Positions 12,348 to 32,410 of a stretch of DNA of 64,000 nucleotides are shown here, in pieces. The first letter of the stretch is position 1. Every line of letters starts with the position of its first letter. Both the position numbers and the translations under genes were made by a program. Origin of the DNA: Planctomycetota bacterium. GTDB taxonomy: Bacteria > Planctomycetota > MHYJ01 > WSZJ01. The notes below the pieces were generated by a model, which saw only the letters and a program-made list of their open reading frames with translations, did not search any database and was not told the origin of the DNA. The DNA is taken from contig JBBTCT010000009.1 of assembly GCA_038060895.1 (NCBI GenBank), positions 304,082 to 368,081 on the forward strand. The letters are read 5' to 3'.

Positions 12348-13007
12348 CTAGGCTCTCGCCTCGCTGCTGAACAACGCCCTGTAGGTGAAACTCGCCGCCA
12401 CGGCGCCGATCGCGGGGCCGAGAAGGTAGACCACCGGGTCGGGGCAGCACTTGCTCGCGAAAATCCCCGTCCCGAGCCACCGCGCCTGGTTCATGGCGGC
12501 GCCTGTGACCGGCCCGCCCATCAGGATGTCCATGCAGACCGTGAGGCCGATGCCGAATCCGCCGATCTTCGGTGCGTTCTTGTCCACCGCCGTGCCGAGA
12601 ACCGCGGTCAGGAGGAAAAACGTCAGCGCCGCTTCAACCAGGATCCCGATTCCGACGGAAGTCTTGTCGAGGTGCGGGGTGGCGCCCAGAAGATCGGCGC
12701 CGCTGAAAATGGATTTGAGGAGCAGGCCCGCGACGAAAGCTCCCGCGCACTGGGAAATCCAGTAGGGGATCGCTTCGCCGATCTTCATCTTGCCGATCGA
12801 GAGCAGCCCGAGCGTGACGGAAGGGTTGAATTGTCCGCCCGAAATGTGGCCCATCGCCGAAATCATCGTCGCCAGCGCCAGACCGTGTGCGATCGCGATC
12901 GCCAGCAGGCTGTTCCCGCCGTTCAGGATCGCCCCGCCGCCGATGAACGTCAGCGCAAATGTCCCGATCAGTTCCGCGACGCACGCCCCCATCAGCTTCT
13001 TGTCCAT
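12348..13007 (-). CDS. MIP family channel (aquaporin) with variant NPA boxes
   Basis: AELIGTF, ISGGQFNPSVT, GPVTGAAMNQARW; six hydrophobic segments. Confidence 0.9.
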   Translation of the reverse strand: MDKKLMGACVAELIGTFALTFIGGGAILNGGNSLLAIAIAHGLALATMISAMGHISGGQFNPSVTLGLLSIGKMKIGEAIPYWISQCAGAFVAGLLLKSIFSGADLLGATPHLDKTSVGIGILVEAALTFFLLTAVLGTAVDKNAPKIGGFGIGLTVCMDILMGGPVTGAAMNQARWLGTGIFASKCCPDPVVYLLGPAIGAVAASFTYRALFSSEARA

Positions 13008-13049
13008 GCGCTTCAGTTTCCTTATCTCGGGTTGCGAAGTCCGGGAATC

Positions 13050-14207
13050 CTATGCCCTCGCCCGTTCCTCGACCACTTTTGAAAGCGCCTCCTTGACCAA
13101 CCGGTCCACTTCCAGCCCTTTCTCAGCTTCCGCCGCCTTCTCCGGCGAGCTGGCCGTGGCCGGGGCGCGCGGCATGAGGAAGGAGCAGCAGTCGTCGTGA
13201 GGAAGGTTGCTGATGTCGAAGGTAAAGATGCGGCGGGCGGTGTCGATGATTTCCTGCTTGTCCATGCCGATGAGCGGGCGAAGGACGGGGATCGTGGCGA
13301 CGGCGTTGATGGTCTCGAGGTTTGTGAGGGTCTGGGAAGCGACCTGGCCGAGCGAGTCGCCGGTAACGAGCGCGTGGGCGTCCTCGCGGCGGGCGATGGC
13401 TTCGGCGATGCGGGTCATGAAGCGCCGGTAGAGGATGATGCGGAATTCCTGCGGGGAGTTGGTGACGATTTCCTGCTGGATGGGAGCGAACGGCACGAGG
13501 TGAAGGCGCGCGGTGCCCTGCCAAGGCTCGAGTTTCTGGGAGAGTTCGCGGACTTTGTCGAGCGAAGCCTGGGACGTGAAGGGCATGGAATGAAAATGGA
13601 CGAAGCTCGTGCGGCAGCCGCGGCGGATCATGCGCCAGGCGGCGACGGGGGAGTCGATGCCGCCCGAGAGAAGGGTGACGACGCGGCCGGCCGTGCCGGC
13701 GGGGAGACCGCCGGGGCCGGGCTCTTTGCGGAAGTAGGCGTAGAAGTCCTTGTTCACGACCTCGACGAATATTTCGAGGTCCGGGGACTCCAGGTCCACG
13801 GTGGTTCCCGGGATCAACTTCTGCACGAACGCGCCGAGCCGGCGGTTCATCTGCTCGGACGTGAGCGGGTACTCCTTGTTCATGCGGCGGCAGCGGCAGG
13901 CGAAGGACTTCACGTTCATTGAGGGCAACTCCGCCGCGAGGAGAGCCTCGAGAGCGTCCATTTCGGCCTTGAGGACGTGAATGCGCGCGAAGTAGGAGAT
14001 GCCGAATACGCACGAGAGGCGCCGGCGGACTTCGTCCCACGGGGCGGCTTCGGGGAGGCTGAGCAGGATTCGGCCCGGCTGGCGACGGATCTTGAGTTCG
14101 CCCAGCGGCGCAAGCAGGCGCTTGGCGTTTTCGGCCAGGCGGATCTCAAAATAGGGGCGATTCTTGCCCTTGAGGCCGAGTTCGGCGTAGTGGAGGACGA
14201 TTTGCAT
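13050..14207 (-). CDS. thiI: tRNA 4-thiouridine synthase ThiI (no rhodanese domain)
   Basis: HYAELGLKGKNR, THUMP region, PP-loop LLSGGIDSPVA, GQVASQT, RPLIGMDKQEI, DDCC. Confidence 0.93.
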   Translation of the reverse strand: MQIVLHYAELGLKGKNRPYFEIRLAENAKRLLAPLGELKIRRQPGRILLSLPEAAPWDEVRRRLSCVFGISYFARIHVLKAEMDALEALLAAELPSMNVKSFACRCRRMNKEYPLTSEQMNRRLGAFVQKLIPGTTVDLESPDLEIFVEVVNKDFYAYFRKEPGPGGLPAGTAGRVVTLLSGGIDSPVAAWRMIRRGCRTSFVHFHSMPFTSQASLDKVRELSQKLEPWQGTARLHLVPFAPIQQEIVTNSPQEFRIILYRRFMTRIAEAIARREDAHALVTGDSLGQVASQTLTNLETINAVATIPVLRPLIGMDKQEIIDTARRIFTFDISNLPHDDCCSFLMPRAPATASSPEKAAEAEKGLEVDRLVKEALSKVVEERARA

Positions 14208-14368
14208 TGTGGGAGGAAGTCTATAACAGGAGTGGAAGCGGAAAGCGAGGTGGAAGGGTTGGCCCGCAGGGCTGGCCAGTCCATTTCATCTCAGCTTTTC
14301 TGTGAACCTCATTCAAACCTCACGCGATCAAGGTGGTACAGCGCCGAAGTACGAAAGGACCTACTGTC

Positions 14369-15616
14369 ATGACATGCGACGCAACTCGTTCACAGCTAAC
14401 GGATTATGTTAAAAACGAGCTGACGAGAGCCGAAGCCGATGACGTCGCCGCTCACCTCAATACCTGCGAAAATTGCCGATCCAACGAGGCCGAAATTCGA
14501 AAGAATTTCGGCCTTCTTCGTTTGGCAACGGCTCCCAAGCCCCCCGACGCTCTCTGGGCCCGGATTTCCGCTTCTGTTGATGAGATCGAAGCCGGCAGGG
14601 GGCTGGAAGTGGCCGCAAGGCCAGCCGCGTGGGTCTGGCGGGGGATGGCCATCGCCGCGACCCTCCTCATTACCATCTCTGCCGTCATGCTGTTCAATCA
14701 CACCGGACGCCCCGATGCTCCGGCCGTTGCCCGCCTGGATCTGCTCGGACCGGGAGTCACGATTTACCGTATGACAGGTACGGACCGCCAGCCGATGAAA
14801 CAAGGCAGCACGCTGGCGCAAGGCGAGACACTCGTCATGGACCCAGGAGCGGCTGCAATTTTTACGATCCAGGGCGTCGGAAAGTTCAGGGTTGCGGGCG
14901 GCTCCACGCTTCGTATCACAGGCCCCCGCGCCATTCAGCTGGAAAAAGGCGAACTCATCGCCGACATCAACCCGGGCGGCAAAGGTTTTGAGATTTCGGC
15001 GCCGCAGGCAAGCGCCATCGTCCTCGGAACCCTCTTTCGCGTCAGCGCCGCCGGCGAGCGCACTTCGCTGACCGTCGCCCGGGGAAGCGTCAGATTCAGC
15101 AATTCATCCGGTGCCGTCGACGTGAAGGCCGGATATCAGTCGGCCGCGCTCGCAGGAAAGTCTCCCGCGGCCCCCCTTGAACTCGCCGCCGATGCCGCCG
15201 ACTGGGATCTCTTCCGGTCCGTCGCACCCGCCCCGCGCGTCGAACTCTCGATCGAAGCGGCGACCGCGGGAAAGCCGGTGCACTTCCAGATTACGCTCAG
15301 TTCCGACGCGCCGACGGACATCGAGGCGGGCGTCACGGAGCGCACCTACGTCATCCTCACGCTCGAAGACCCGACCGGCGCCCGCCGACTGGTCCGCCTT
15401 GCGGCCGGGGATCTCACCGCGTCCTGCGACGGGCAGGTCGTGAATGGCCTCGCTTCCATCGATCGCGAAAAGAGACTCGTCCTCAAGGGCGAATTGCGCG
15501 GGCTCGCCGCGGACGGAACGTGGCGCGTCAGCGCGCTCTTCGCCAGCGGCGGCCGCGAGGACTCGTGGGCCGGTTATTCCGAATCGCAGACCATGGCGAT
15601 CGAGGTGAAGCGGTGA
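14369..15616 (+). CDS. Zinc-finger anti-sigma factor with transmembrane helix and FecR domain
   Basis: Start ATG 14369 after AAAGGA; HLNTCENC ZAS motif; TM segment; LEKGE...VLGTLFRV...VARGSV FecR pattern. Confidence 0.8.
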   Translation: MTCDATRSQLTDYVKNELTRAEADDVAAHLNTCENCRSNEAEIRKNFGLLRLATAPKPPDALWARISASVDEIEAGRGLEVAARPAAWVWRGMAIAATLLITISAVMLFNHTGRPDAPAVARLDLLGPGVTIYRMTGTDRQPMKQGSTLAQGETLVMDPGAAAIFTIQGVGKFRVAGGSTLRITGPRAIQLEKGELIADINPGGKGFEISAPQASAIVLGTLFRVSAAGERTSLTVARGSVRFSNSSGAVDVKAGYQSAALAGKSPAAPLELAADAADWDLFRSVAPAPRVELSIEAATAGKPVHFQITLSSDAPTDIEAGVTERTYVILTLEDPTGARRLVRLAAGDLTASCDGQVVNGLASIDREKRLVLKGELRGLAADGTWRVSALFASGGREDSWAGYSESQTMAIEVKR

Positions 15617-15683: not shown

Positions 15684-17795
15684 ATGGACCTGTCGCCAAT
15701 CCTGGGGAAGATCGAATCGGTTCGCGGCCGCGCGCGGCAGCTTGTGACGCTGGACGGCGCGTGCCGCGTGGCGCTCGTGGTGCTGGTCGCGGCGCTTTTC
15801 TCGTTCTGCATCGACTTTTTCATTCCGAAATTGCCGCTCGGCGTCCGCGCCACCGTCCTGATCGCCGGCCTCGCGGCGGCCGGGTTCGCGGCCTGGCGCT
15901 ACGTCGTCACGCCGCTCTCGGTCAAACTCTCGGATGACGACCTCGCGCTTTGCGTCGAGCAGCAGTTCCCCGACTTGCAGGACCGGCTGATCAGCGCGAT
16001 CCAGCTCAACCGGCAGCGCGGCGAATTCTCGCGCTTCAATTCGCCCGAACTCGTCGACGCCCTCGTGAAAGACGCCATGAACGAAGCGGCGCCCCTGGAC
16101 TTCTCGCCGGTGCTGCTCCCCGCGGGCCCGATGAAGATTGCAGCGGGGACGGCGGCGGCGGTTCTGGTAGCGGGAGCCTTGGCGATCTGGCAGTTCGATG
16201 CCGTGAAGACCTGGGCCGCGCGCCTCTTCAGCGATTCGGTTCAGTGGCCGAAGAAGACGCGGATCGTCGTGCTGGAGCCTTCGGGCAACCCCGTGACCGT
16301 GGCCAAGGGCGACGACCTGCGAGTCGAGGTCGAGACGCAGGGGTCCGTGCCCCGCAAGGCGCTGATTCACTATCGCTTCTCCGGCCAGGGTGAGCCGATC
16401 TCCCGGCCGATGCGCGCCGGTTCGAAGGGCAACTGGCTCTTCGATTTCTCGAAGGTCATCGAGCCGATGGAGTTCTGGATCGAGGCCGGCGACGACGAGA
16501 CGCTTCCCGTGACGGTGCAGGTGCTGAACCCGCCGACGGTCGAGCGGATCACGCTTCTCTATGACTACCCGGACTACACGCAGCTCAAGGACACGGACCC
16601 GTCGGCGCCGGTTGAGGACGGGAATATCGTGGCGCCGCCCGGGACGCACGTGACGGTGACGGCGCAGGCGAACCTCGACATTTCGAAGGCGAAGGCGGTG
16701 TTCGGGAGACGGGGCGAGGAAGACATGCGCGAGCTGGTGGTGAAGAACGACGCGCAGGGCCGGCCGCGGATGGTGGTGGCGGAGATCGACGTGCTGGCAA
16801 ACACGCAATACGCGATCTGGCTGCAGGCGACCAACGGGCTGCAGACGAATTCGCCGGTGCGGTACTCGATCAAGGCGATCGAGGACAGGCCGCCGGAAAT
16901 CAAGATCAGCGAGCCCAACCTCGACAAGTTCTGCACGGTGCAGGCCCGGATCCCGATCCGGTTTGCGACTTCGGACGACTTCGGCGTGATGAAGCTCGAA
17001 CTGATGATCAAGACCAACGACGCCAAGCGGCCCGAGCAGACCGTGGCCCTGGACGCGTTCAACACCGAGAGCTACCCGTCGAAGAAGATCGACACCGAGT
17101 ACTTCTTCGACATGACCGAGTTCGGCGCCAAGGAAGGCATGGTCATCCAGTACCAGATCGTCGCTCGCGACGGCCGCGAAATCCCGAAGGCGAACGAAAC
17201 GCGGTCGAGGCTCTTCCAGTTCACCGTGATCAAGCGCGACGACCTGCTGAAGAAGATGGAGGACCGCCTGGCTCGGATCCGCGAGGAACTGCAGCGCGTG
17301 ATCCAGTTCCAGGACGGCGGACGCGGGGAAGTGTCGCGCCTGATGGATGCGGTCGGTACGAAAGACATGCTCAGCGCGGTCGAGCGGCAGGCCGTCAACG
17401 GCGCCGCGGGGAACCAGCGCCGCATCACGCAGCACATGGAGCGCATCACGCACGAGTTCGACGAGATCGTCCGCGACATGCGCTACAACAAGCTCCTCGA
17501 GGGCGGCTCCGAAGCCCGCCTCAAGAAGCCCGGCGACCTGCTCCATGGCGTCACCGAGTACAAGTCGCCCGAAGTCGCGACGCTTCTCGGCTCCGCCGCC
17601 AGCGTCGGGCAGGCGAAAGATCGCATGAACAAATTGCAGGACACTTCCATTAAGCAGGAAGACATCCTCACCGACCTGACCACCGTCCTGGCTCTCCTGA
17701 CCGAGTACGAGACCTACCTGGAGGTTGTGCGCTACGTGCGCGAGCTGCTCCAGAAGGTCAAGGGGAACCTCGACGAAATGAGACGCACCAAGTAA
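15684..17795 (+). CDS. Membrane-anchored DUF4175-like protein (TM helices, Ig-like beta domains, coiled coil)
   Basis: GGAGG RBS; three N-terminal hydrophobic segments; E..FPDLQDRLISAIQL; DRPPEI...SDDFGV motif; helical C-terminus. Confidence 0.7.
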   Translation: MDLSPILGKIESVRGRARQLVTLDGACRVALVVLVAALFSFCIDFFIPKLPLGVRATVLIAGLAAAGFAAWRYVVTPLSVKLSDDDLALCVEQQFPDLQDRLISAIQLNRQRGEFSRFNSPELVDALVKDAMNEAAPLDFSPVLLPAGPMKIAAGTAAAVLVAGALAIWQFDAVKTWAARLFSDSVQWPKKTRIVVLEPSGNPVTVAKGDDLRVEVETQGSVPRKALIHYRFSGQGEPISRPMRAGSKGNWLFDFSKVIEPMEFWIEAGDDETLPVTVQVLNPPTVERITLLYDYPDYTQLKDTDPSAPVEDGNIVAPPGTHVTVTAQANLDISKAKAVFGRRGEEDMRELVVKNDAQGRPRMVVAEIDVLANTQYAIWLQATNGLQTNSPVRYSIKAIEDRPPEIKISEPNLDKFCTVQARIPIRFATSDDFGVMKLELMIKTNDAKRPEQTVALDAFNTESYPSKKIDTEYFFDMTEFGAKEGMVIQYQIVARDGREIPKANETRSRLFQFTVIKRDDLLKKMEDRLARIREELQRVIQFQDGGRGEVSRLMDAVGTKDMLSAVERQAVNGAAGNQRRITQHMERITHEFDEIVRDMRYNKLLEGGSEARLKKPGDLLHGVTEYKSPEVATLLGSAASVGQAKDRMNKLQDTSIKQEDILTDLTTVLALLTEYETYLEVVRYVRELLQKVKGNLDEMRRTK

Positions 17796-17823: not shown

Positions 17824-20814
17824 ATGCGCAGATTCGCCGGACTCATCAGCACGGGGCTCGCCCTGTGCGTTCTCGTCACCGCGCATCTGTACGCGGACGA
17901 CCAGGGCGGGAACGCCAATCGCGTCGTGCTCGAACGCGAGAAGGAGATCGAGAAGCGAGTTAACGACCTGAAGGACAAGATGAAGCGCGTCGCCGATGGG
18001 CTCCAGGAGAAAGAACCCGAGGCGGCCGCGCGGCTCTACGCCGCTGGCCAGGCACTCCAGGGATCGCTTCTTGAGGAAGACATCAGGAAGGTCATCGCCA
18101 ACATCGCCGAGGCCAAGATGGGAACGGCGATCGAGCAGCAGGAAGAGATCGTGAGCGACCTCCAGGTGATTCTCGACATTCTCGAGAACCGGAACAACGA
18201 GGGCGACCTGAAGAAGAAGCTCGAGGCGATCCGGAAATTGATCGCCGAGCTGAAAGGAATCCAGAAGGAACAGAACGACACCACCAAGAAGACCGAAGAG
18301 ATGAACAAAGAGCGGGAGCAGGACACCGCCGAGATGAAGGAGAAGCTCGACGCCGCGATCAAGGAACAGCAGGCGCTCGAGGACACGCTCAAACAAAATG
18401 ACACAGCCGGGATGGAAAAGGACATCGAGGCGGCGAAGAAGGAGCTCGAAGCGCTCAAGGCCGAGCAGGACAAGCTTCAGAACGAGACGAAGGACGCGCA
18501 GTCGAAGGAAGTGCGCGACCTGGCCGACGCGGTCAAGGGCCTGAAGGACGTCATCAAGAAACAGGAAGACGCGATTGCGAAGGCGAAGGCGTCCGCCGAA
18601 GGCGCGCAGACGACGAAGGAAGCGATCGAAGCCATCGAGAAGATCCAGAAAGAACAGGAAGCGATCCAGAAGCGCACGAAGGAAGCCGCCGACGAGGATT
18701 CAGCGCAGAAGATGGGTTCGATCCAGAAAGCGCAGGAGAAGAACTCGAAGGACACGGCGCGCGCCGGCGAGAAGCTGGACGGCATGCCGGAGACAAAGGG
18801 TTCGAACGAGGCGAAGAAGGCGCTCTCCGACGCGAAGAAGGCGATGGACCGGGCTGCCAAGGACCTCGAGGACGAGACGCCCGGCCTCGCGCAGCAGAAC
18901 GAGCAGAAGGCCTCCGACGCGCTCGAGAAGGCGAAGCAGGCCCTGAAGGACGAGATGGCCAATGCCGAGAAGAATCGCGAGCAGGATCTGGCCGACCAGG
19001 CCAAGGCGCAGGGCGATCTGAAGGAAGCGACGCAGAAGCTCGCCGACCAGATGTCCAAGGTCGGTGAGGAATCGGCCAGCAAGCCCACCAAGGACGCCCT
19101 CAAGGAAGCCGGCGAGAAGACCAAGGGTGCTTCCGGCGACATGAAGAAGGCCGAGCAGGAACTGGGCCAGAAGAACCCGTCGGGCGCCAAGTCGAACCAG
19201 GACCAGGCGCTCAGTTCGCTCAACCAGGCGAAGGAGAAGCTGGAGCAGCTCGAGGCCCAGCTTGCGCAGAAGGACGCCAAGGCGATGAGCGAGGTCGCCA
19301 AAAAGCAGCAGAACCTGCAGGACAAGGCGAACGAGCTGGCCAAGCAGCTGCACGAGATGGGGCAGAAGTCCGGCGAGAACGGCGACATGAAGAAGGCCGC
19401 GGACCAGGCTTCCAAGTCGACCAAGAGCGCCAGCCAGGAGATGGGCGACGCTTCCCAGAAGATGAGCGACGGCAAGTCGTCCGAGTCGCAGGACAACCAG
19501 CAGCAGGCGAGCAAAGATCTGCAGAAGGCCGCCGACGCGCTGGACAAGATGAAGAAGGCGCTGGCCGCTTCGAAGGAAGGCCAGGAAAAGAAGGCGAAGG
19601 AAGTCGCCGACAAGCAGGCTGAGCTCGAGAAGAAGATGAAGGACCTGGCCGAGAAGATGGAAGAAGTGGCCAAGAAGAACGCAGACAAGGATCCGCAGGG
19701 CGCCGCTTCGATGAGCAAAGCCGGCCAGAAGACCGACCAGGCTTCCGGCGAGATGAAGAAGGCCGGGAAGCAGATGGAGCAGAAGGACAACGAGAGCGCG
19801 CAGGCGAACCAGGCGCAGGCCAAGAAGGCGCTGGAAGAAGCCAAGAAGGAGCTGGAGAAGCTGAGCCAGCGCGAGTTGACGGAGGAGCAGAAGCGCCGGC
19901 TCGAGCAGTTGAAGGAACGTCAGCGGAAGATCGAAGAGCAGCTGAAAAAGATGCAGGAGAATGCTGCGAAGGTGCCGGAGAAGAAGTCGGCGGCGTCGCT
20001 CGGAGAGGCGTCGAAGTCGGCCGGGCAGACGGGGCAGAGCCAGCAGAAGCAGGATACGCAGAAGTCGCAGGAGGACAGCGAGAAGACGGAAGAAGACATG
20101 CAGAAGGCGCTGGAGGACCTGGAAGAAGCGGAGCGGCAGTACGCGCAGCAGCTGCAGGAAGAGCAGCTCCAGCAGATGGAGAACAAGCTGAGGGAGCTGG
20201 TGGAGAAGCAGCAGCGCATCAACGATGAAACGCGCCGGCTGGATGCGATCAAGGTGAAGGAGGGCGATCTCGACCGCAAAGGCCAGATGGATGTGCGCAA
20301 GATCAAGAACGAGCAGGAAGAGCTGAAGAAGCAGTCGGAGGAAGTCCGGGCCAAGACCGAGGAGGAGAAGTCGACTGTCGCGGAGTGGATCCTCGAGACG
20401 TGCCGTGACGACATGGGGGCCATCGCCGAGGAGCTCGGGAAGCAGGAAGTCGGCGAGTACACGCAGGAACTGCAGCTGGACGTGCTCACGCGGCTGAAGG
20501 AGCTCGTGCAGGCGCTCGAGAAGGAGCGCCAGCGCCGCAAGAAGAAGCAGCAGCAGCAGGGCGGAGGCGGCGGTGGCGGCGGGCCGCTGATCCCGGACGT
20601 GGCCGAGCTCAAGCTCCTGAAGACCATGCAGGTTTCGCTCAAGAAGAAGACGGAGCGCTTCTCGGCCGAATCGACGAAGGAAGCGCACAAGGAGCTGGAT
20701 CCCGTGCAGAAGGCCATTCTTGCCCGGCTCCGTGCGGAGCAGGGGCATATCGCTGAGCTCACCCGTGAATTCACGGACAAAATCAAAGAGAAAATGCAGG
20801 GAGGCGGGAAATAA
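17824..20814 (+). CDS. Secreted very long coiled-coil protein (K/E/Q-rich, DUF4175-like C-terminal repeats)
   Basis: AAGGAG RBS; signal peptide; repeated M..A...L....A..NQ.QA helical units; QQQQGGGGGGGPLIPDVAELKLLK near C-terminus. Confidence 0.75.
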   Translation: MRRFAGLISTGLALCVLVTAHLYADDQGGNANRVVLEREKEIEKRVNDLKDKMKRVADGLQEKEPEAAARLYAAGQALQGSLLEEDIRKVIANIAEAKMGTAIEQQEEIVSDLQVILDILENRNNEGDLKKKLEAIRKLIAELKGIQKEQNDTTKKTEEMNKEREQDTAEMKEKLDAAIKEQQALEDTLKQNDTAGMEKDIEAAKKELEALKAEQDKLQNETKDAQSKEVRDLADAVKGLKDVIKKQEDAIAKAKASAEGAQTTKEAIEAIEKIQKEQEAIQKRTKEAADEDSAQKMGSIQKAQEKNSKDTARAGEKLDGMPETKGSNEAKKALSDAKKAMDRAAKDLEDETPGLAQQNEQKASDALEKAKQALKDEMANAEKNREQDLADQAKAQGDLKEATQKLADQMSKVGEESASKPTKDALKEAGEKTKGASGDMKKAEQELGQKNPSGAKSNQDQALSSLNQAKEKLEQLEAQLAQKDAKAMSEVAKKQQNLQDKANELAKQLHEMGQKSGENGDMKKAADQASKSTKSASQEMGDASQKMSDGKSSESQDNQQQASKDLQKAADALDKMKKALAASKEGQEKKAKEVADKQAELEKKMKDLAEKMEEVAKKNADKDPQGAASMSKAGQKTDQASGEMKKAGKQMEQKDNESAQANQAQAKKALEEAKKELEKLSQRELTEEQKRRLEQLKERQRKIEEQLKKMQENAAKVPEKKSAASLGEASKSAGQTGQSQQKQDTQKSQEDSEKTEEDMQKALEDLEEAERQYAQQLQEEQLQQMENKLRELVEKQQRINDETRRLDAIKVKEGDLDRKGQMDVRKIKNEQEELKKQSEEVRAKTEEEKSTVAEWILETCRDDMGAIAEELGKQEVGEYTQELQLDVLTRLKELVQALEKERQRRKKKQQQQGGGGGGGGPLIPDVAELKLLKTMQVSLKKKTERFSAESTKEAHKELDPVQKAILARLRAEQGHIAELTREFTDKIKEKMQGGGK

Positions 20815-20816
20815 CC

Positions 20817-21530
20817 ATGAACATCATCACGAACGTGCTGCGTTTCGCGACGGCCGGCGCCCTGGCGGCGGCCCTGATGGTCCCGGCGTGGGCGGACGAC
20901 GAGGAATTCCCGGACGGTCCCGCGGCGGAAGGCGAAGAGGCTCTTCCGGGCTCGGACGAGGAGGAGATGGAGGAGGCGGAGATCGACCCGCTGAAGACGC
21001 TCGACGAGATCATCTCGAAGATGAAGGACGCGGAGTCTTCCCTGGCCCAGGCGGGATCGTGGAAGGCGACCGACAAGCAGGGAAACGTCATCGAGGAGAT
21101 CGAGAAGCTGGTGAATGCAAAGGATCTGCAGGACAAGGCGATCCGCGAGATGGAGAAGATTTTCACCGGGTCGAAGGAAGGGCAGGGCCAGGCGGTCGAG
21201 GGGCTGGAGAAACTGATCAAGGCGGCGAAGGAGCAGGAGGGGCAGGGCGAGGGGAAAGAGCAGCAGAAGAAGAAAGAGCAGCAGCAGAAGCAGCCCGGGC
21301 AGCAGAAGCCGAACAAGCCGTCGAACCCGGCGCAGCAGCCCTACAATCCTTCCGGCAATCCGGAGACTGGCGCCCGCGAGCGGACAGGCGAATTGACCGA
21401 ACGGTGGGGAAGCCTTCCTGATAGACTGAGAGACGAAATCAGCCAGGCCGACGACGAGTTCAGGAGCACGAAAGGGACGTATCGCGAGAAGCTGATGGAG
21501 TACAGCCGGCTCCTCGGGGCGTCCGAATAA
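20817..21530 (+). CDS. Secreted hypothetical protein (acidic N-terminus, Q/K linker, WG.LP.R.R...YREKL.EY C-terminus)
   Basis: Signal peptide ending AWA; 2 bp downstream of previous stop; collinear with 21589-22290. Confidence 0.75.
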   Translation: MNIITNVLRFATAGALAAALMVPAWADDEEFPDGPAAEGEEALPGSDEEEMEEAEIDPLKTLDEIISKMKDAESSLAQAGSWKATDKQGNVIEEIEKLVNAKDLQDKAIREMEKIFTGSKEGQGQAVEGLEKLIKAAKEQEGQGEGKEQQKKKEQQQKQPGQQKPNKPSNPAQQPYNPSGNPETGARERTGELTERWGSLPDRLRDEISQADDEFRSTKGTYREKLMEYSRLLGASE

Positions 21531-21588: not shown

Positions 21589-22290
21589 ATGAGATGGAAC
21601 CTGGTGCTGAGCGGAGTCCTTTCGCTGGGATTGTCGTTCCCGGCCTTTGCGGACCCCGGAGAGGAATTCCCGGAGGGGCCGAAGGGTGAAGAAGAGGCGC
21701 TGCCGGGAAGTGACGAAGAGGAGATGGAAGAGGAACAAATCGATGTGCTGGGCACGCTGGAGACGATCGTCGGCGATATGAAGGATGCTGAAAAGAGCCT
21801 CGCCGACATCAACGGCTGGAAGGCGACGGATGCGCAGGGCAACGCGATCGACGACGTGAAGCGACTGATCGACGCCCAGGACCTGCAGAAGAAGGCGATC
21901 GACGACATGTCCCGTATCTTCGAAGGCGGCAAGAACGAGCAGGAAGCCGCTGTCCAGGGCCTCGAAAAGCTGATCAAGGCCGCGAAGGAAGGCGACTGAG
22001 GGGGCAGCTGCTCCGACAAGAAAACCTCCCAGGCTGGGAGCAAGCAGAAGACGCCGAAGAATGCGAATCCCAAGACTGCCAGCAATCCTGCGACCGCGCC
22101 CTACAACCCGAGCGGATCGCACGACGACACGCCGCTGGTCGACCGCACTTCAGAACTCAAGGATCGCTGGGGAAACCTGCCCGATCGCCTCCGCGACGAG
22201 CTCAGCCAGGCCGACGATGACTTCCGCAACGTCAAGGGCGACTACCGCGAGAAGCTTCTCGAGTACTCGAAGATGTTGAGCCAGGAGTAG
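21589..22290 (+). CDS. Tandem paralog of 20817-21530 with in-frame TGA (21997-21999); candidate selenoprotein, 233 aa (alternative: nonsense pseudogene)
   Basis: Reading through TGA gives GD-U-GGSCSDKK...SNPATAPYNPSG...RWGNLPDRLRDELSQADDDFRNVKGDYREKLLEYSKMLSQE-TAG, matching the paralog C-terminus. Confidence 0.65.
22026..22040 (+). promoter_or_regulatory. Putative bacterial SECIS hairpin
   Basis: CTCCC-AGGCT-GGGAG; loop begins about 31 nt after the TGA. Confidence 0.45.
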
Positions 22291-22311
22291 CAGACCCAGA
22301 AGGCCAGCGCC

Positions 22312-22348
22312 GCCCGCGCGGATCCTTCGGGACTGCGCGGGCTTTTTT
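22312..22348 (+). terminator. Rho-independent terminator
   Basis: GCCCGCGCGG-A-TCC-TTCG-GGA-CTGCGCGGGC followed by TTTTTT. Confidence 0.85.
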
Positions 22349-22374
22349 GCAGGCCGCATTTAAGGAACGCAACA

Positions 22375-23454
22375 GTGTCCCTCTTCGATCGCCGCAGCTT
22401 CCTCACCCGCTCCCTTGGACTCGCCGCCCTGCCGTTCGCGGGGGCCGCTTCACGCGCCCTCGGCGAAGACAAGCCGGCCGAGCCGCCGCCGGTTGAGCGC
22501 AAGAACCTGATCACCGAAGGGCAGATTGCGGCGACGCGGAAGGGGCTGGAGTACCTGCGGAAGGTGCAGGACAGCAAGAAGGGCTCGTGGGGAGGAAGCG
22601 TGCAGGTCGCGGTGACGTCGCTGGCCGGGTGTGCGTTTCTGGCGGAGGGGCACCAACCGGGGCGCGGCAAGTACGGCGAATGTGTGCAGAAGGCGATCAA
22701 TTACATCCTGAACTGCAGCAAGAGTTCGCGTAAGGGATACATCTCGGAGCCGGCGGGGGACCAGTCGCGGATGCACGGCCATGGGTTCGCGTCGATGTTC
22801 CTGGGTGAGGCTTACGGGATGATGAAGATGGACGACGACACCCGGACGAAGATGGAGAGCGCGATCAAGAAGGCGGTCGGGATCATCGCCTACTCTCAGA
22901 CGCAACTCGGCGGATGGGGATATGTGCCGGAGCCGACCTACGACGAGGGCTCGGTCACGGTGGCGGAAGTCATGGCGCTCCGCTCCTGCCGCAATGCCGG
23001 CTTCCAGGTCGACAAGAAAGTGATCGAGAAGGGCATCGGGTACCTCAAGAAGTCGGCCAACCCGGACGGTTCGTTCAAGTACTCCCTTCAGGGAGGAGGC
23101 GGTGGCGGCACGTTCCCGCTCACGGCGGGCGCCGTGGCCTCGATGCAGCTCTTCGGCGAATACGAAGCCAAGGAAGTCAAGAAGGGGCTGGAGTTCCTGA
23201 AGAAGAACCGGCAGAACCAGGTCGGCGGGAACTGGGGCCACAAGTTCTACGGCAACCTGTACTCGACGATGGCGGCGTACTACGCGGGAGGGCAGTTCTG
23301 GGAGGACTGGTTCCCGACGATGCGGGACGAGTACATCAAGACGCAGCAGGGGGACGGCTCCTGGCAGGGAGAATACGACGGCACGTACTGCACCGCGTTC
23401 GCGGTCCTGACGCTGGCCGTTCCTTACCAGTACCTCCCAATTTTTCAGGCTTGA
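22375..23454 (+). CDS. Tat-exported prenyltransferase/squalene-oxidase-repeat protein
   Basis: DRRSFL twin-arginine signal; MHGHGFA, QTQLGGWGY, ANPDGSFKY, QQGDGSW repeats; ends YLPIFQA. Confidence 0.8.
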   Translation: MSLFDRRSFLTRSLGLAALPFAGAASRALGEDKPAEPPPVERKNLITEGQIAATRKGLEYLRKVQDSKKGSWGGSVQVAVTSLAGCAFLAEGHQPGRGKYGECVQKAINYILNCSKSSRKGYISEPAGDQSRMHGHGFASMFLGEAYGMMKMDDDTRTKMESAIKKAVGIIAYSQTQLGGWGYVPEPTYDEGSVTVAEVMALRSCRNAGFQVDKKVIEKGIGYLKKSANPDGSFKYSLQGGGGGGTFPLTAGAVASMQLFGEYEAKEVKKGLEFLKKNRQNQVGGNWGHKFYGNLYSTMAAYYAGGQFWEDWFPTMRDEYIKTQQGDGSWQGEYDGTYCTAFAVLTLAVPYQYLPIFQA

Positions 23455-28420: not shown

Positions 28421-29683
28421 TCAGGATGTCGGAAGCGCCGCGCGGTCCTTCATGGCGGCGCGCCACGCTCCCAGCGTCGCCGCGAGGCACGCGAACATTG
28501 GCAGGCCGATCGCTCGCGTCCAGGGATGGACGATTCCAAGCTCGAGCAGGACCGTTGTGAAGAGCCACCTGCGGAATTCCGGGTCCTGGCGGCGGTCTAG
28601 CAGGCAGACCACCGACGGAAGGATCACCGCGAGGTGAAATGTCCACGCGACCGGCGAGACGAAGGTTGTGACGGCGCAGAGCAGCCCTGCCTCGGGAAGC
28701 GACATGGCTTCACCGTTGCGGCGAGCCAGGAATGCCAGGAGGCACAGGATGGCGAGCGGCAGCTGAAGCGCGCGGACGATCCATGCGACCGTCCCCGGCG
28801 ACAGATTCGTGAGATTGACCTGGAAGGGCTTGCTGCTCTTCCCGGCATTCACATCCATGAAGACCCGTGCGGCCCATGCGTGGAGCGACTGGTTGTTGTA
28901 CCGGACGGACTCGCGGAGTTCGAAGAACCTGGAGCCGGTTGTGGAAGCGCTTTCGCTGAGCCACCGTTCGTGAAGTTCCCGGGACCTCGAGGCTCCCCAG
29001 ACCGGGACGGCCAGCGCGCAGAGAAGTACGAAGGCCGCGGCGCAGGCGGCGGCGGCGGCCCAGCGCCTCTTCATGAGGAAGTACACCCCGACGATTGCCG
29101 GCGTGACCTTGATTGCCGCCGCGAGACCGGCCAGCGCCCCCCCGATCCACGGCCTCGTCCGGGCGAGGTCGACAGCCGCCAGCGAGAGCGCAAGTGTCAC
29201 GATGCCGATCTGGCCCATCGTGAATGCATCCGCCCAGAATACCGCGGTCGCAATCAGGACTGCGAGGGCGTCCCCGGAATCGAGCGGCCGCTCGCGGCCC
29301 GAAAGCCGGAAGGCGCACTTCAGTGAGAAGAGCAGCGCGGCGAACGAAAAGCAGTGCCAGAGGAGACAGGAGGCGTCCATCGGGAGGAGAGCGAAGGGAG
29401 CCATGAGGATGCCGAAGAACGGCAAGTAGCGAGTTACTGCCGAGTCCGTCTCCAGGTCATCCAGCTTGACCGGCCCGGTTTTGCGAAGTCCGGGGAACAT
29501 CAGCCGGTCGGCTTCCGGGCCCGGGATCCGCTCGTAGGGATCATGCCCGTCCAGGACGGCGCGGCCCGCGCGCCAGAATCCGTCATAGTCGGTCTTGAGG
29601 GTGTAGACGCGGCGGACGGACTGGAAAGCGGTGAAGAGGAAAAGGAGAGCGTACGCTGCGACGAAGGCGCGGCGCGAAGTCAT
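28421..29683 (-). CDS. Glycosyltransferase family 87 (DUF2029) membrane protein
   Basis: DYDGFWRAGRAVLDGHDPY, YLPFFGILMAPFALLP, GQIG, AAAIKVTP, NQSL, SPVAW; ATG overlaps ATPase stop. Confidence 0.82.
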   Translation of the reverse strand: MTSRRAFVAAYALLFLFTAFQSVRRVYTLKTDYDGFWRAGRAVLDGHDPYERIPGPEADRLMFPGLRKTGPVKLDDLETDSAVTRYLPFFGILMAPFALLPMDASCLLWHCFSFAALLFSLKCAFRLSGRERPLDSGDALAVLIATAVFWADAFTMGQIGIVTLALSLAAVDLARTRPWIGGALAGLAAAIKVTPAIVGVYFLMKRRWAAAAACAAAFVLLCALAVPVWGASRSRELHERWLSESASTTGSRFFELRESVRYNNQSLHAWAARVFMDVNAGKSSKPFQVNLTNLSPGTVAWIVRALQLPLAILCLLAFLARRNGEAMSLPEAGLLCAVTTFVSPVAWTFHLAVILPSVVCLLDRRQDPEFRRWLFTTVLLELGIVHPWTRAIGLPMFACLAATLGAWRAAMKDRAALPTS

Positions 29684-32031
29684 CGGGTGTCCTCGCAGCA
29701 TTCCGCGGTGTGCTCCCGCATCAGCCTGAGCCCGTTGAAAATCACAAGGAGGGAGACGCCGACGTCCGCGACGACGGCCATCCAGAGGTTGGCGAGGCCT
29801 GCGGAGGCGAGGACGAGGAACGCGGCTTTGAACGCGACCGACAGCACAATGTTCTGTGCGATGACGCGAGTCGCCAGGCGGCCGAGGCGGACGGCAAAGG
29901 GGAGCTGGCGCAGGTCGGGGGACATGAGGGCAACGTCGGCGGCCTCGAGGGCGACATCGGAGCCGGCGGCGCCCATGGCGATGCCCACGTCGGAGGCGGC
30001 GAGCGCCGGGGCGTCGTTTACCCCGTCGCCGACCATGGCCAGACGGCCATGAAGCGCGCGAAGCGCGGCGACGGCTGCCAGCTTGTCCTGCGGAAGGAGG
30101 CCCGAGCGAATCTCGTCCAGGCCGAGCGATGAGGAGGCGGCGCGCGCCGCCGCTTCGGAGTCACCGGTCAGCATCGAAACGCTGGTGATTCCCGCGCTGC
30201 GCAGTCCGCGGATGGCCGCTGAGGCGTGGTCGCGGACCCTGTCTGCGAACGCCAGGACTCCGACGGGGCCTTCGGAAGTGGCGAGCACGGCGCACGTACG
30301 GCCTTCGGCCTCGAATCGCGCGACTGCGGCCTCCGCCGGACCGGCCGGGAATCCCTTTTCCCGCAACAACCTGAGCGAGCCGAACAGGTGCTCGACGCCG
30401 CCGATGTCAACGCGGGCGCCGAGCCCCGGGATTGCCTCGTAGAGTTTGGCGCCTTCAGGGCGGATTTCCTCGCCGTGGGCGCGGGCGACGACGGCTTTCG
30501 AAAGCGGGTGCTCCCCGGCGAGCGCGGCGACCGCAGCGCGGCGCAGCAACTCCTCTTCGGAGACGCCGAACGCCACTACCGCCGAAACTTCGAACGCGCC
30601 TTCCGTCAGTGTGCCCGTCTTGTCAAACGCGACGGCTCGCACGCGGCCGAGCGCTTCGAGCGCGGCGCCGCCCTTGAAGAGAACCCCGCGGCGCGACGCG
30701 GAGGAGATGGCGGCAAGGATCGTGACGGGCGTGGAAAGGATGAGGGCGCACGGACACGAGACGACGAGAAGAGTGAGCGCGCGGCCGAGCCACGGGGTCC
30801 ACGCGGCGCCGAGGGCCAGGGGGGGGATGACGGCGACGCCTGCTGCGAGCAGGAAGACGACGGGCGTGTAGACGCGCGCGAAGCGGTCCACGAAGCGCTG
30901 CGACGGCGCTCGGCGGGACTGGGCCTTCTCGACGAGATCGACGATGCGGTTGACGGTCGCGTCGGCGACCGCGCGCGTGACGCGGATCTCCAGCGCGCCG
31001 CGGCCGTTCAAGGTCCCGGCGTAGACAGCGGATCCCTGCGACTTCTCGACGGGCGCCGCCTCTCCCGTGATGAACGCTTCGCTCACGGACGATTCGCCCG
31101 TGGCGACAAGCCCATCGGCGGGGAAGCGTTCGCCGGGCCTGACAAAGACGATCATGCCGGGGGTGAGTTCTCCGACGGGGATGCGTTCCTCGCGCCCGTC
31201 GCGCCGGACCGTCGCATCGCGCGGAGCGAGTTCGACCAGTGCGCGGATGGCTTCGCGTGCGCGCCCGAACGTCAGGGCTTCCAGCAGGGTTCCGACGGAG
31301 AACAGGAACATGGCGGTTGCGGCTTCCGCCCAGTCCCCGAGTGCCGCAGCTCCTGCGCAGGCCGTGCTCATGAGGAGGAACATGTCGAAGGACCGGGACT
31401 TCCATGCCATTCGCAGGCCCCGGACCATTGCCGGGAGGCCGCAGAGCGCGAGGGAGGCGGCGAAGCAAGCGACGGATGCGGAGGGGAAGCGGGTCCACTG
31501 GAAGGCGAAGCCCGCGGCCAGGGGAGCGGCGGCGAGCGCCGGGGGAAGGACGGCGGAGCGTGGGAGGCGGGGCGCGGTGGCCGCCCTGCCGGCCTCAGCG
31601 CGGCCGGGCGGGCGGTCGGAAACGCCGTAGCCAAGCCGGCGGATCTCCTCGGCTACGCGCGGGCCCGCGTCGCGCTCCGCGTCCGCCACGAGCCGGCCGG
31701 CCCCGAAATCGACCTCAGCCCAGGCGACACCCTGCACGCGCATGACCGCCTTCGAGATGCCGACGCCGCACCCAGGGCAGTCCATTCCGCTCACGTACCA
31801 CGTCCCGTGCCACGCCTTCTCGGCGATCGCCCGGGCAACCGATCGGGCTTCCTCCGAAAGCCGCTCGCGCGTCCAGGCGGATTCGTCGAACTCCACCGCC
31901 AGCGCCTCGGCATCCGCGTCGACCCGTGCCTCGCGGACGCCGGGAAGCGTCCGAATCGAGGCGACGAGCTCGCCCTCGCAGCGTCCGCAGCGGGAAGCGA
32001 TGAGCGCGGGGAGGGGGAAAACGGTGTTCAT
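29680..32031 (-). CDS. cadA: Heavy-metal-translocating P1B-type ATPase (Zn/Cd/Pb, CadA/ZntA type)
   Basis: N-terminal CGRC and GMDCPGC metal-binding domains, TGEA, SCPCAL, DKTGT, GDGVNDAP, TM Lys and ADVG. Confidence 0.92.
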   Translation of the reverse strand: MNTVFPLPALIASRCGRCEGELVASIRTLPGVREARVDADAEALAVEFDESAWTRERLSEEARSVARAIAEKAWHGTWYVSGMDCPGCGVGISKAVMRVQGVAWAEVDFGAGRLVADAERDAGPRVAEEIRRLGYGVSDRPPGRAEAGRAATAPRLPRSAVLPPALAAAPLAAGFAFQWTRFPSASVACFAASLALCGLPAMVRGLRMAWKSRSFDMFLLMSTACAGAAALGDWAEAATAMFLFSVGTLLEALTFGRAREAIRALVELAPRDATVRRDGREERIPVGELTPGMIVFVRPGERFPADGLVATGESSVSEAFITGEAAPVEKSQGSAVYAGTLNGRGALEIRVTRAVADATVNRIVDLVEKAQSRRAPSQRFVDRFARVYTPVVFLLAAGVAVIPPLALGAAWTPWLGRALTLLVVSCPCALILSTPVTILAAISSASRRGVLFKGGAALEALGRVRAVAFDKTGTLTEGAFEVSAVVAFGVSEEELLRRAAVAALAGEHPLSKAVVARAHGEEIRPEGAKLYEAIPGLGARVDIGGVEHLFGSLRLLREKGFPAGPAEAAVARFEAEGRTCAVLATSEGPVGVLAFADRVRDHASAAIRGLRSAGITSVSMLTGDSEAAARAASSSLGLDEIRSGLLPQDKLAAVAALRALHGRLAMVGDGVNDAPALAASDVGIAMGAAGSDVALEAADVALMSPDLRQLPFAVRLGRLATRVIAQNIVLSVAFKAAFLVLASAGLANLWMAVVADVGVSLLVIFNGLRLMREHTAECCEDTR

Positions 32032-32342
32032 GGGTGTGCCGCGTGGCGGAGTCCCTGTTTCAGGACCGTGGCGACGTGGGCGTCAGAGAGCGCGTACCAC
32101 ACCACCCGGCCGTCGCGGCGCGCAGTGACGATCCGGCGGTCGCGCAGTTTCGAGAGCTGGTGGGAAAGCGCTGAAATGCTGCACCCGAGGGAAGCGGCCA
32201 GGTCCGTGACGCGGGACTCGCGGGAGCGCATGAGCGCGCACAGCAGGCGCAGCCGGGTGCGGTCGGCAAGCGCGGAGAAAATGCGTTCGGCGTCACGGAG
32301 AACTCGAGAGGACGGCGCATGGACGGGGCGTCGGATGCTCAT
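32028..32342 (-). CDS. ArsR/SmtB family metal-sensing repressor
   Basis: FSALADRTRLRLL, SALSHQLSKLR, RRDGRVVWY; alpha5 site D-A-H-x10-H-x2-H. Confidence 0.9.
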   Translation of the reverse strand: MSIRRPVHAPSSRVLRDAERIFSALADRTRLRLLCALMRSRESRVTDLAASLGCSISALSHQLSKLRDRRIVTARRDGRVVWYALSDAHVATVLKQGLRHAAHP

Positions 32343-32379
32343 GAACCGGATTGTCCCGGGAGGCCGGCAGCACGTCAAA

Positions 32380-32410
32380 TGAATTGTTGATCAATTGTTC
32401 AAGTATTCAA
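32380..32410. promoter_or_regulatory. Putative ArsR/SmtB operator
   Basis: AT-rich patch upstream of arsR with near-palindrome TTGATCAATTGTTCAA (32387-32402), resembling TGAA-N6-TTCA SmtB/CzrA boxes. Confidence 0.6.

Follow-up and report, generated by a model that had tools for sequence, protein, structure and literature searches.

Does the TGA at positions 21997–21999 of the analysed stretch of DNA (the window, 64,000 nucleotides) end a short gene, or does it stand for an amino acid inside a longer one? An open reading frame of 136 amino acids on the forward strand (21589..21999) stops at this codon. The frame is broken solely there and continues to a TAG at 22288–22290, as the preliminary description of the window had stated, so that read-through gives 233 residues with the TGA as codon 137. 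That description had proposed insertion of selenocysteine (Sec) into a member of a new family, a proposal that is supported by the Sec machinery, conservation, dN/dS, a SECIS-like hairpin and independent contigs. On this sequence evidence the UGA is in all likelihood decoded as Sec (U137), and the gene (21589..22290, forward strand) very probably encodes one 233-residue Sec protein of an uncatalogued family with a proposed accessory redox or metal loop.

The gene has a tandem twin (20817..21530, forward strand) of 237 amino acids that contains neither Cys nor Sec. BLASTP aligned the twin with residues 17 to 230 of the read-through product, across the TGA, at 121 identities in 215 positions (56%, E 8e-69), which confirms the previously noticed likeness of the C-terminal part to the upstream paralogue; the lengths given for the two proteins (233 and 237 amino acids) agree with the translations. 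The only Cys of either protein (Cys141, 22009..22011) follows the TGA by four codons and would be the partner of Sec137 in a U-G-G-S-C motif, and the twin reads E-Q-E-G-Q-G-E-G at this site, again as described. A second gene with an in-frame TGA, which had been put forward as support for Sec decoding, was not recovered: two composition-filtered six-frame scans of the window returned the Sec site alone, bar a trivial gene–gene junction at 23452.

Gene callers treat the TGA as the end of the gene, 14 of 30 homologues in the database have 136–137 amino acids and finish there, and the source genome is an assembly of 47 contigs with 86.5% completeness. All this would fit a recent nonsense mutation, or an assembly or sequencing error, in a duplicated gene whose product is a 136-residue stub or nothing. 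However, a TGA occupies the same column in five of five genus-level orthologues, whose proteins are 65–85% identical (dS 0.6–1.3), and is found in 33 distinct linkers of the wider family. The codon is also unchanged in a contig from an independent DNA run (X3) and in three RNA-library contigs that bridge it (X8, X9 and X10), although the latter are no proof of transcription because DNA can occur in such libraries. The X3 data leave 20923–20975 and 21612–21664 uncovered and the RNA libraries most of the twin, gaps that carry no meaning because both data sets consist of contigs. Lastly, the sequence past the TGA is under purifying selection, with dN/dS of 0.11–0.32 after the TGA versus 0.12–0.38 before it (10 pairs from five orthologues, dS 0.6–1.3), and relaxed selection was not seen. 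Taken against these observations, a mutation or error has next to no probability.

By these ratios the C-terminal half is constrained as strongly as the N-terminal half, which bears on a further reading, namely that the UGA mainly serves as a regulated stop, with a functional 136-residue half and a minor, selenium-dependent full-length form. Sec insertion in bacteria competes with termination, and the N-terminal half shows no less conservation than the rest, both of which such regulation would accommodate. It would not account for the equal constraint on the C-terminal half, where the last about 50 codons have dN/dS of 0.12–0.36 in the five orthologues, nor for the location in this half of the most conserved motif of the family, nor for relatives with a Cys pair, which make the full-length form only. 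We consider a mainly regulatory stop improbable.

To return to Sec decoding, the family is present in 32 of 41 related genomes, and ten match rows in this set contain an in-frame TGA. Nine of these rows were inspected (the row of G013, with one in-frame TGA, was left out), and in all nine the TGA lies at the end of the helix. SelA is encoded in all nine genomes, and both the TGA and the Cys forms are absent from the four SelA-less genomes among the 41. All loci were found with the most conserved motif of the family as the search pattern, and three collections yielded 146 distinct linkers, of which 33 contain Sec, eight a Cys pair, six a single Cys and 99 neither, counts that, like the Mann–Whitney P value for the folding z scores given below, overstate independence because the sequences are related. 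The 33 Sec linkers divide into UxxxxU (15, with U at the second position too), UxxxxC (12), UxxxC (5) and CxxxxU (1, L134). Either member of a [U/C]-x3-4-[U/C] pair can be Cys in place of Sec in relatives, and homologues with Cys aligned to the UGA (P0003, L020, L021, L106, L115, L151 and L156) join the TGA-bearing orthologues in bearing out the expectation of TGA or Cys at this column; in P0003, which is 64% identical, C-x3-C occupies the place at which the closely related P0024 and P0026 end. Several members have extra Cys residues (U-x4-C-x2-C, also with other spacers, and C-x-C-x2-C-x2-C). The same module occurs with UxxC or CxxU in four genomes of another order, all four with SelA, and three of the four sites pass the SECIS model described below. 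For distant genomes we used a profile (A5), since the twin as a single query had failed to find the module in one of the two examined. As far as these sequences reach, the family is found only in Planctomycetota and is widespread there.

Read-through with an amino acid other than Sec (Trp, Gly, Cys or Arg, through a near-cognate or suppressor tRNA or an altered code) would by itself fit purifying selection downstream of the TGA, and nothing more specific speaks for it. TGA is an ordinary stop within the family as well, for example at the end of the G001 orthologue, and Cys is the sole residue that replaces the presumed Sec in relatives. The genome also encodes the complete Sec machinery, as a check of the sel genes showed: SelA (448.7 bits), SelB (wing domain, 76.2 bits), tRNA-Sec (71.7 bits, anticodon TCA) and SelD (364 bits), the last with an in-frame TGA of its own at the known N-terminal loop. 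Together with the hairpins that follow the UGA sites, these findings make incorporation of another amino acid highly improbable.

Such a SECIS-like hairpin, already noticed in the preliminary description as a 15-nucleotide stem and loop, lies at 22026..22040 on the forward strand, 32 nucleotides past the UGA. It has a 6-bp stem, a 3-nucleotide loop (G-G-C) and a folding energy of −8.0 kcal/mol, and it passes the published bacterial SECIS model (bSECIS; PMC13188914, Fig 2 legend). Across the family the model is passed by 40 of 46 distinct UGA sites (six fail) versus one of 75 homologous sites in Sec-free copies, one of eight Cys-pair sites and four of 151 random in-frame sites. The 57 nucleotides past the UGA have a mean z of −1.82 (n = 32) versus −0.28 (n = 75) for the equivalent stretch of Sec-free copies. 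In the alignment of the five orthologues of the genus, 97.1% of cells pair (26–45% in slid controls) and three pairs have changed on both sides, which supplies the compensatory changes expected of a functional stem; in the U-x4-U group a stem stays paired through a swap of the encoded peptide from P-N-G to G-N-P. The 49 nucleotides past the TGA in the window show no folding advantage over shuffled sequences (z −0.36; of 200 shuffles, 63 equal or better), and we did not use folding energy as evidence for the window sequence because it falls within the shuffle range. The hairpin is supported by comparison with relatives, not by its own energy. An Rfam scan of 21900–22400 (E ≤ 10) returned no SECIS family and two sRNA matches at chance level only. 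An intrinsic terminator follows only past the TAG, as had been described (22312..22348, forward strand; hairpin 22312–22342, −30.5 kcal/mol, z −3.08, then six T at 22343–22348).

From N- to C-terminus, the protein consists of a signal peptide, an acidic stretch, two long helices with the [Sec/Cys]-x3-4-[Sec/Cys] pair at the end of the second, a Q/K/P-rich linker with a conserved N-P-A-x-x-P-Y and a C-terminal helix with W-G-x-L-P. The predicted signal peptide (21589..21651, forward strand) comprises 21 residues with a putative cleavage site after A-F-A, before D, and AF2 places a helix at residues 4–15; the protein is presumably exported. The AF2 model has further helices at 53–75, 97–136 and 199–232 and disorder at 137–189 (pLDDT 65.5, pTM 0.28); Sec137 may accordingly lie where a helix ends, at its C-terminal side, and a disordered linker begins, a tentative placement because the model is of low confidence.

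Searches for a known family gave no assignment. No Pfam or NCBIfam model exceeds its cut-off for the family, and NCBIfam returned no family at E ≤ 0.01. For Metal_resist (PF13801, CpxP/Spy/ZraP type), weak matches occur in three of 24 members, all below the cut-off (best E 0.00091); the twin scores 19.3 bits over residues 9–79, which include the signal peptide, versus a cut-off of 29.2. The family is also unlike thioredoxin-fold oxidoreductases, in which C/U-x-x-C/U opens a helix: there is no match to a Pfam family of the thioredoxin clan, the pair spacing is x3–x4, and the model, albeit of low confidence, contains helices only and has the pair follow one of them. A profile search of the PDB (A4) found designed helical bundles and coiled coils only (best E 0.00054), which reflects shared composition and not homology, and in the ESM Atlas the nearest clusters of the twin are unnamed Planctomycetota “hypothetical proteins” (scores 0.91–0.92). 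The earlier picture, in which a UxxxC site lies on a flexible linker and the protein is neither a thioredoxin nor a known oxidoreductase, is thus upheld by the Pfam and NCBIfam results and the AF2 model.

The closest systems share single features with the family. The UGSC-containing family (NF041046; PMC13188914, Table 1) likewise consists of small predicted selenoproteins with Sec followed by G, S and C, is known from sequence alone and is presumed to have a redox role. Its motif, however, is U-G-S-C (UxxC), whereas the window gene has U-G-G-S-C and other members have U-x4-C/U, and neither NF041046 nor any other NCBIfam model gave a match at E ≤ 0.01; the family described here also differs in its signal peptide, long helices and disordered linker. 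TsoB (NF045694), a rhodanese/DsbD fusion-like double selenoprotein with a UxxxxU motif (PMC13188914, Table 1), shares the U-x4-U spacing of 15 of the 33 distinct Sec linkers, but there is no sequence match to it and no rhodanese or DsbD domain, and the pair follows a helix, on a flexible loop. DUF4175 (PF13779) is weakly similar in three of 24 members (best E 0.00015), and the nearest Pfam-bearing ESM Atlas cluster (score 0.76) has DUF4175 in 16% of its members; the family nevertheless scores below the gathering cut-off, with 15.7 bits for the twin versus 27.3 and no match for the Sec protein. For DUF4175, whose function is not known, we found no recorded selenoprotein members and no paper containing both terms. 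No counterpart of the family appears among the 119 listed in the 2026 inventory of prokaryotic selenoproteins, a review that makes no mention of Planctomycetota (PMC13188914). An earlier “hypothetical” candidate is listed for planctomycete P1 (PMC4807772, Table S9).

The gene is part of a run on the forward strand that begins with an anti-sigma-like protein (zf-HC2 and FecR by domain search, 14333..15616). A 703-residue DUF4175-like protein follows (15684..17795), with PF13779 at 28.9 bits (cut-off 27.3) and counterparts upstream in L052, L055, L056 and L058, and then a 996-residue coiled-coil protein (17824..20814), with PF13779 below the cut-off at 24.9 bits, which tblastn places directly upstream of the family in L042–L064. 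Downstream lies a prenyltransferase/squalene-cyclase-like protein of 359 amino acids with a twin-arginine-like leader (22375..23454), a homologue of which is found just downstream in most of 50 genome_contigs loci, including long-form Phycisphaerae loci. The order conserved across the phylum is DUF4175-like protein, coiled coil of about 1,000 residues, Sec family and prenyltransferase-like protein, with the Sec gene as the second of the tandem pair. A P-type ATPase gene lies at 29680–32031, 7 kb off on the opposite strand.

It had been suggested that the cell keeps Sec-bearing and Sec-free versions side by side. The tandem twin agrees with this, and of 23 two-copy loci 17 have the order Sec-free then Sec and three Sec-free then Cys pair, with the caveat that at least three genomes have the Sec copy alone and that the pair is gone from close relatives. 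Besides the twin, the pair is missing from the second copies in G003 and G005, from P0018–P0020 and from 99 of the 146 linkers, and in some lineages (L026) the two copies are almost the same apart from the loop. Our phylogeny is a quick tree, from which we did not infer the order of events. Having no Cys at all, the twin does not serve as a sulfur-based reserve for the site. In this it differs from Sec/Cys isoform pairs such as FmdB/FwdB, which are described as expressed according to selenium supply (PMC4807772): a Sec gene and a Sec-free paralogue in one genome are common to both cases, but here the copies are in tandem and the twin offers no chemical substitute at the site.

What might the pair do? 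The SelA/SelB/tRNA-Sec system would decode the UGA under the direction of the hairpin at 22026–22040. The selenol/thiol pair on its flexible loop could then close into a small selenylsulfide ring, or a diselenide in U-x4-U members, whose role would be that of a redox-switchable or buffering site or of a soft-metal clamp. Because twins, close relatives and many lineages do without it, the pair would be accessory to a structural envelope protein and not an enzyme active site. That the pair forms some sort of redox or metal site is probable. Given such a site, we infer that a reversible redox loop is quite possible, metal or metalloid binding somewhat doubtful and an inter-chain staple unlikely.

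That the pair is instead a ligand site for soft metals or metalloids (Cu(I), Hg, As, Cd) is suggested by members with a third or fourth Cys, in which a further CxxC resembles metal ligation, by the weak PF13801 matches and by the 2026 inventory, which lists selenoproteins that have Sec or Cys in pairs and are predicted to bind metals (PMC13188914, Table 1). The PF13801 matches are sub-threshold and include the signal peptide, however, the loci compared contain no conserved metal-handling gene in the cluster, and the P-type ATPase is both distant and on the other strand; we regard a dedicated metal site as doubtful.

Some coiled-coil proteins of the extracellular matrix are locked by Cys pairs where the coil ends. 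The family resembles them in having a Cys-like pair directly after a long helix, in a protein predicted to be exported, an analogy of function only, without homology. The Sec-Cys or Sec-Sec pair could be a non-catalytic, structural or switchable staple that links the chains of an exported coiled-coil scaffold internally or to one another, which we consider rather unlikely; a selenylsulfide or diselenide would hold in reducing, anoxic groundwater and soil where disulfides open. With such a staple, selenocysteine would for the first time have a structural role in an envelope protein of bacteria. On this reading, a single SECIS hairpin, 37 and 22 nucleotides away from the respective UGAs, would act for both of them in U-x4-U members.

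Whichever role applies, the family would extend the list of 119 selenoprotein families, and its public records systematically end at the UGA, as 14 of the 30 database homologues do. Its traits are unusual in that the protein is predicted to be exported, is helical and partly disordered and not thioredoxin-like, often has two Sec five positions apart and adjoins a twin free of Sec and Cys. Why a cell pays the cost of Sec for a non-enzymatic loop and whether one SECIS serves two UGAs thereby become testable questions, and the family would provide a chemical handle on a conserved, uncharacterised envelope gene cluster of the Planctomycetota.

The Sec gene (21589-22290, forward strand) starts with an ATG at 21589 that is preceded by a G-G-A-G-G ribosome-binding site, and with read-through of the in-frame TGA at 21997-21999 it encodes 233 residues up to the TAG at 22288-22290. 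As stated in the preliminary description, translation showed that the frame is open past the TGA (Sec137) and that the only Cys of the read-through protein lies four codons 3' of it (Cys141, 22009-22011). The directly upstream neighbour, a tandem paralogue of 237 residues (the "twin", 20817-21530, forward strand), contains no Cys at all. Read-through product and twin have 121 identities in 215 positions (E 8e-69), and because the alignment spans residues 17-230 the likeness of the two proteins, also proposed earlier, extends well beyond the TGA. A 15-nt hairpin is indeed found at 22026-22040, and only 3' of the TAG does a strong terminator with a run of six T behind it follow (-30.5 kcal/mol, z -3.08). 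The claim of a second in-frame TGA gene was not confirmed: two six-frame scans of the window with a codon-position composition filter yielded, besides the Sec gene, only a trivial junction of two genes at 23452.

The TGA is not an assembly error, because it is carried unchanged by a contig from an independent DNA run of another study (X3, covering 21889-22039 with zero differences) and by contigs from three metatranscriptome libraries of an aquifer study, all of which bridge it (X8, 21894-22279; X9, 21659-22161; X10, 21896-22148). No edited form of the TGA is present in the three RNA-library contigs, which are free of differences except for one C>T at 22100 in X10 (depth 2.3). This variant alters the Pro171 codon of a conserved P-Y motif at its second base and is seen neither in X8 nor in X9, both covering the base; X3 does not extend to it. 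Transcription of the Sec gene is no more than likely, since these are contigs and RNA libraries may contain DNA. The TGA occupies the same column in five genus-level orthologues (own genome, G002, G006, G001 and L093), whose 10 pairs (dS 0.6-1.3) gave dN/dS values of 0.12-0.38 upstream of the TGA, 0.11-0.32 downstream and 0.12-0.36 for the last ~50 codons. Purifying selection on the downstream frame is therefore the same as on the upstream frame. In the G001 orthologue (L013:1501-2205), TGA encodes Sec at codon 138 and also serves as the actual stop.

Homologues of the Sec protein ("the family") were found in 32 of the 41 related genomes searched, ten rows containing a TGA inside the match. 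Nine of these were inspected (the G013 row was left out), and in all nine the TGA directly follows the conserved end of the second long helix. Four same-genus genomes read U-G-G-S-C or U-G-S-S-C at this site, whereas the motifs of more distant genomes are U-S-S-G-C, U-x4-C-x2-C (in three of them) and U-G-G-G-S-U; Cys forms at the homologous site of other genomes read C-G-G-G-S-C and C-A-N-G-A-C. Of the 30 homologues in the protein database, none is named beyond "hypothetical protein" and all come from Planctomycetota MAGs; 14 are 136-137 residues long and end exactly at the TGA place. The full-length database protein P0003 (64% identical) has C-Q-G-S-C at the Sec site, where its nearest relatives P0024 and P0026 are truncated. 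A one-genome-per-species scan added 50 loci, all titled Planctomycetota (Planctomycetia, Brocadiia or Phycisphaerae labels), and a metagenome scan a further 80. Profile searches of six-frame translations in which TGA did not end the frame yielded a pooled set of 146 distinct sequences for the linker, the predicted disordered stretch after the second long helix. Sec occurs in 33 of them (UxxxxU 15, UxxxxC 12, UxxxC 5, CxxxxU 1), and the remainder have a Cys pair (8), a single Cys (6) or neither (99). Sec and Cys thus interchange at both pair positions, as is classically seen in true selenoproteins.

The published bacterial SECIS (bSECIS) consensus, as given in its figure legend (PMC13188914, Fig. 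2), comprises a 4-16 bp stem, an apical loop of 3-9 nt in which the first or second nucleotide is G and the next one G or U, a UGA-to-loop distance of 16-37 nt and a free energy of -7.5 kcal/mol or lower. The Sec-gene hairpin (6 bp, loop G-G-C, spacing 32, -8.0 kcal/mol) passes this model in the form stated there. Coded without bulges for wide application, the model was passed by 40 of 46 distinct Sec-UGA sites, by 1/75 Sec-free and 1/8 Cys-pair copies at the homologous place and by 4/151 random in-frame places of the same Sec genes. The 57 nt past the UGA fold with a mean z of -1.82 (n=32) versus -0.28 in Sec-free copies (n=75), a comparison whose p-value overstates independence because the sequences are related. 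Covariation, another proposed check, was evident in a 7-bp structure of the five genus orthologues: 97.1% of cells pair, compared with 26-45% in a slid-partner control, and three pairs changed on both sides. Genes with U-x4-U have two hairpins past the first UGA, the second UGA lying within the stem of the first hairpin. The arms of this first hairpin are exchanged between subgroups with pairing retained, the peptide reading P-N-G versus G-N-P; two hairpins and arm swap are seen in L148, L131, L152, L028 and other U-x4-U loci (alignment A3). With distances of 37 nt to the first UGA and 22 nt to the second, the other hairpin (5 bp, loop of 4 nt starting with G-G) is within range of both. Counting against a SECIS function, the window's own 49 nt past the UGA are no stabler than shuffles (z -0.36), six of the 46 Sec-UGA sites fail the model and no Rfam family matches the hairpin.

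The window's organism is able to insert selenocysteine. Its genome (5.4 Mb, 47 contigs) encodes SelA (448.7 bits), a SelB-specific wing domain (76.2 bits), tRNA-Sec (71.7 bits; ARAGORN likewise calls tRNA-SeC, anticodon TCA) and SelD (364 bits). SelD (locus L172, G000:C2:48628-49548, reverse strand) is itself a selenoprotein with an in-frame TGA at the known N-terminal loop and serves as internal positive control; the 6-bp hairpin after its UGA has the same G-G-C loop as that of the Sec gene, at a shorter distance (starting 14 nt past the UGA). Among the 41 related genomes SelA is present in 37, including all nine inspected TGA-form genomes, and in the four SelA-less genomes the family is either unmatched or represented by members that lack both TGA and Cys. 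In G034, which has a Cys-pair form (locus L020), a weak SelA-like match scores 57.8 bits versus >380 bits in most relatives; as this genome is only 88% complete, absence of SelA cannot be concluded. Sec insertion at 21997-21999, the central claim of the preliminary description, is thus borne out: the UGA is conserved, relatives have Cys, the hairpin fits the SECIS model, the genome encodes the machinery and selection constrains the frame past the UGA.

A May 2026 review compiled 119 families of prokaryotic selenoproteins and gave an identifier from Pfam, NCBIfam, TIGRFAM, CDD or PANTHER for each of them (PMC13188914). The Sec protein matches none of them (Table 1), and the word Planctomycetes is absent from the main text. 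Nearest by motif are the UGSC-containing family and TsoB, a UxxxxU double selenoprotein, but neither shows a sequence match. The available part of the deep-Sep paper adds nine families, none like this one, and a full-text literature search gave no paper that combines selenoprotein with DUF4175. Among the papers listed on Planctomycetes/Planctomycetota selenoproteins, selenoproteome, SECIS and diselenide/periplasm, titles and abstract openings contain nothing on the family, which survey supplements might list under a generic name. An unnamed "hypothetical" Sec candidate from a marine planctomycete, whose Rhodopirellula relative has Cys instead (PMC4807772 Table S9), could be a member. Set against the listed families, we rate the family as new among the bacterial selenoproteins that depend on a SECIS.

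No Pfam or NCBIfam model matches the family at cut-off. The N-terminus resembles a signal peptide ending A-F-A, and the protein would be exported. An AF2 model (86 sequences) is all-helical at low confidence (pLDDT 65.5, pTM 0.28), with helices 53-75, 97-136 and 199-232; because the second ends at 136 and residues 137-189 are without structure, Sec137 is predicted to cap the long helix C-terminally at the start of the flexible linker. The conserved cluster order is a DUF4175-like protein, a ~1000-residue coiled-coil protein, one or two family copies and a prenyltransferase/squalene-cyclase-like protein with a twin-arginine-like leader. That the pair lies where a long helix ends, and that the protein has coiled-coil neighbours, argues for an inter-chain staple, the least probable of the three candidate roles (the other two are given below). 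Elsewhere in the window, two more squalene-cyclase-like (alpha/alpha toroid) proteins adjoin a MraW-type methylase (4692-8145, reverse strand), thus making three toroid proteins; the cluster is directly preceded, on the opposite strand, by genes for a MIP-family channel and ThiI (tRNA 4-thiouridine / thiamine sulfur transfer; 12348-14207, reverse); and an ArsR-like reading frame (~32100-32400, reverse) is located just upstream of a heavy-metal P-type ATPase with HMA domain (29680-32031, reverse), in which no in-frame TGA was seen.

In Phycisphaerae and Planctomycetia-labelled genomes the family is reduced to its C-terminal module (helix, loop, linker, W-G-x-L-P helix), which terminates a long protein; the downstream gene is the same. 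Using a profile built from 25 long-form modules (A5), the module was detected in every one of 81 genomes sampled from a second order, that of the L085 genome (record titled Aureliella sp.), at 1 to 6 matches per genome. Among the 150 matches listed, four contain one in-frame TGA each. In the regions fetched, which were selected for this flag and so give no frequency, the TGA is once more located at the helix end (U-x2-C in L205, C-x2-U in L206-L208), where best-hit paralogues in other genomes have C-x2-C; the bSECIS model accepts three of these four sites, and all four genomes encode SelA (one partial at a contig end). The classical CxxU/UxxC spacing favours a redox-type site in this branch. 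For the family, we propose that the Sec137 pair would sit on a flexible loop and may close into a small Se-S or Se-Se ring. A reversible redox loop, favoured because CxxU/UxxC forms exist, is tentatively the most likely role; soft-metal binding, for which the additional CxxC of some members argues, is somewhat less probable.

Two-copy loci mostly have a Sec-free followed by a Sec copy (17), more rarely Sec-free then Cys-pair (3), Sec-free twice (2) or the reverse order (1). The twin lacks Cys and is thus not a sulfur back-up, and in at least three genomes (L048, L050, L053) the Sec copy is alone, directly after the coiled-coil gene. Of the genomes in the window's genus, G003 and G005 carry a second copy that lacks both Sec and Cys, and a single copy is seen in G007. 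One clade has an additional third paralogue, more divergent, after the Sec copy (segments L054_+2_1922, L130_+2_437 and L104_+0_377). In a quick tree the Sec/Cys label requires at least 10 changes, and the Sec copies of L026, L130, L114 and L059 group with their own twin. The L026 copies (G025; 736-1380 and 1426-2088) have nearly identical N-terminal halves and differ essentially in the loop (S-D-S-Q-S-Q in the twin, U-G-G-S-S-C-K-S-C in the Sec copy), suggesting gene conversion that spared the loop. Together, these groupings point to gene conversion or repeated duplication, for which a quick tree implies no order of events. Across loci and tree, the Sec/Cys pair is thus an accessory of the family that has been kept and lost repeatedly.
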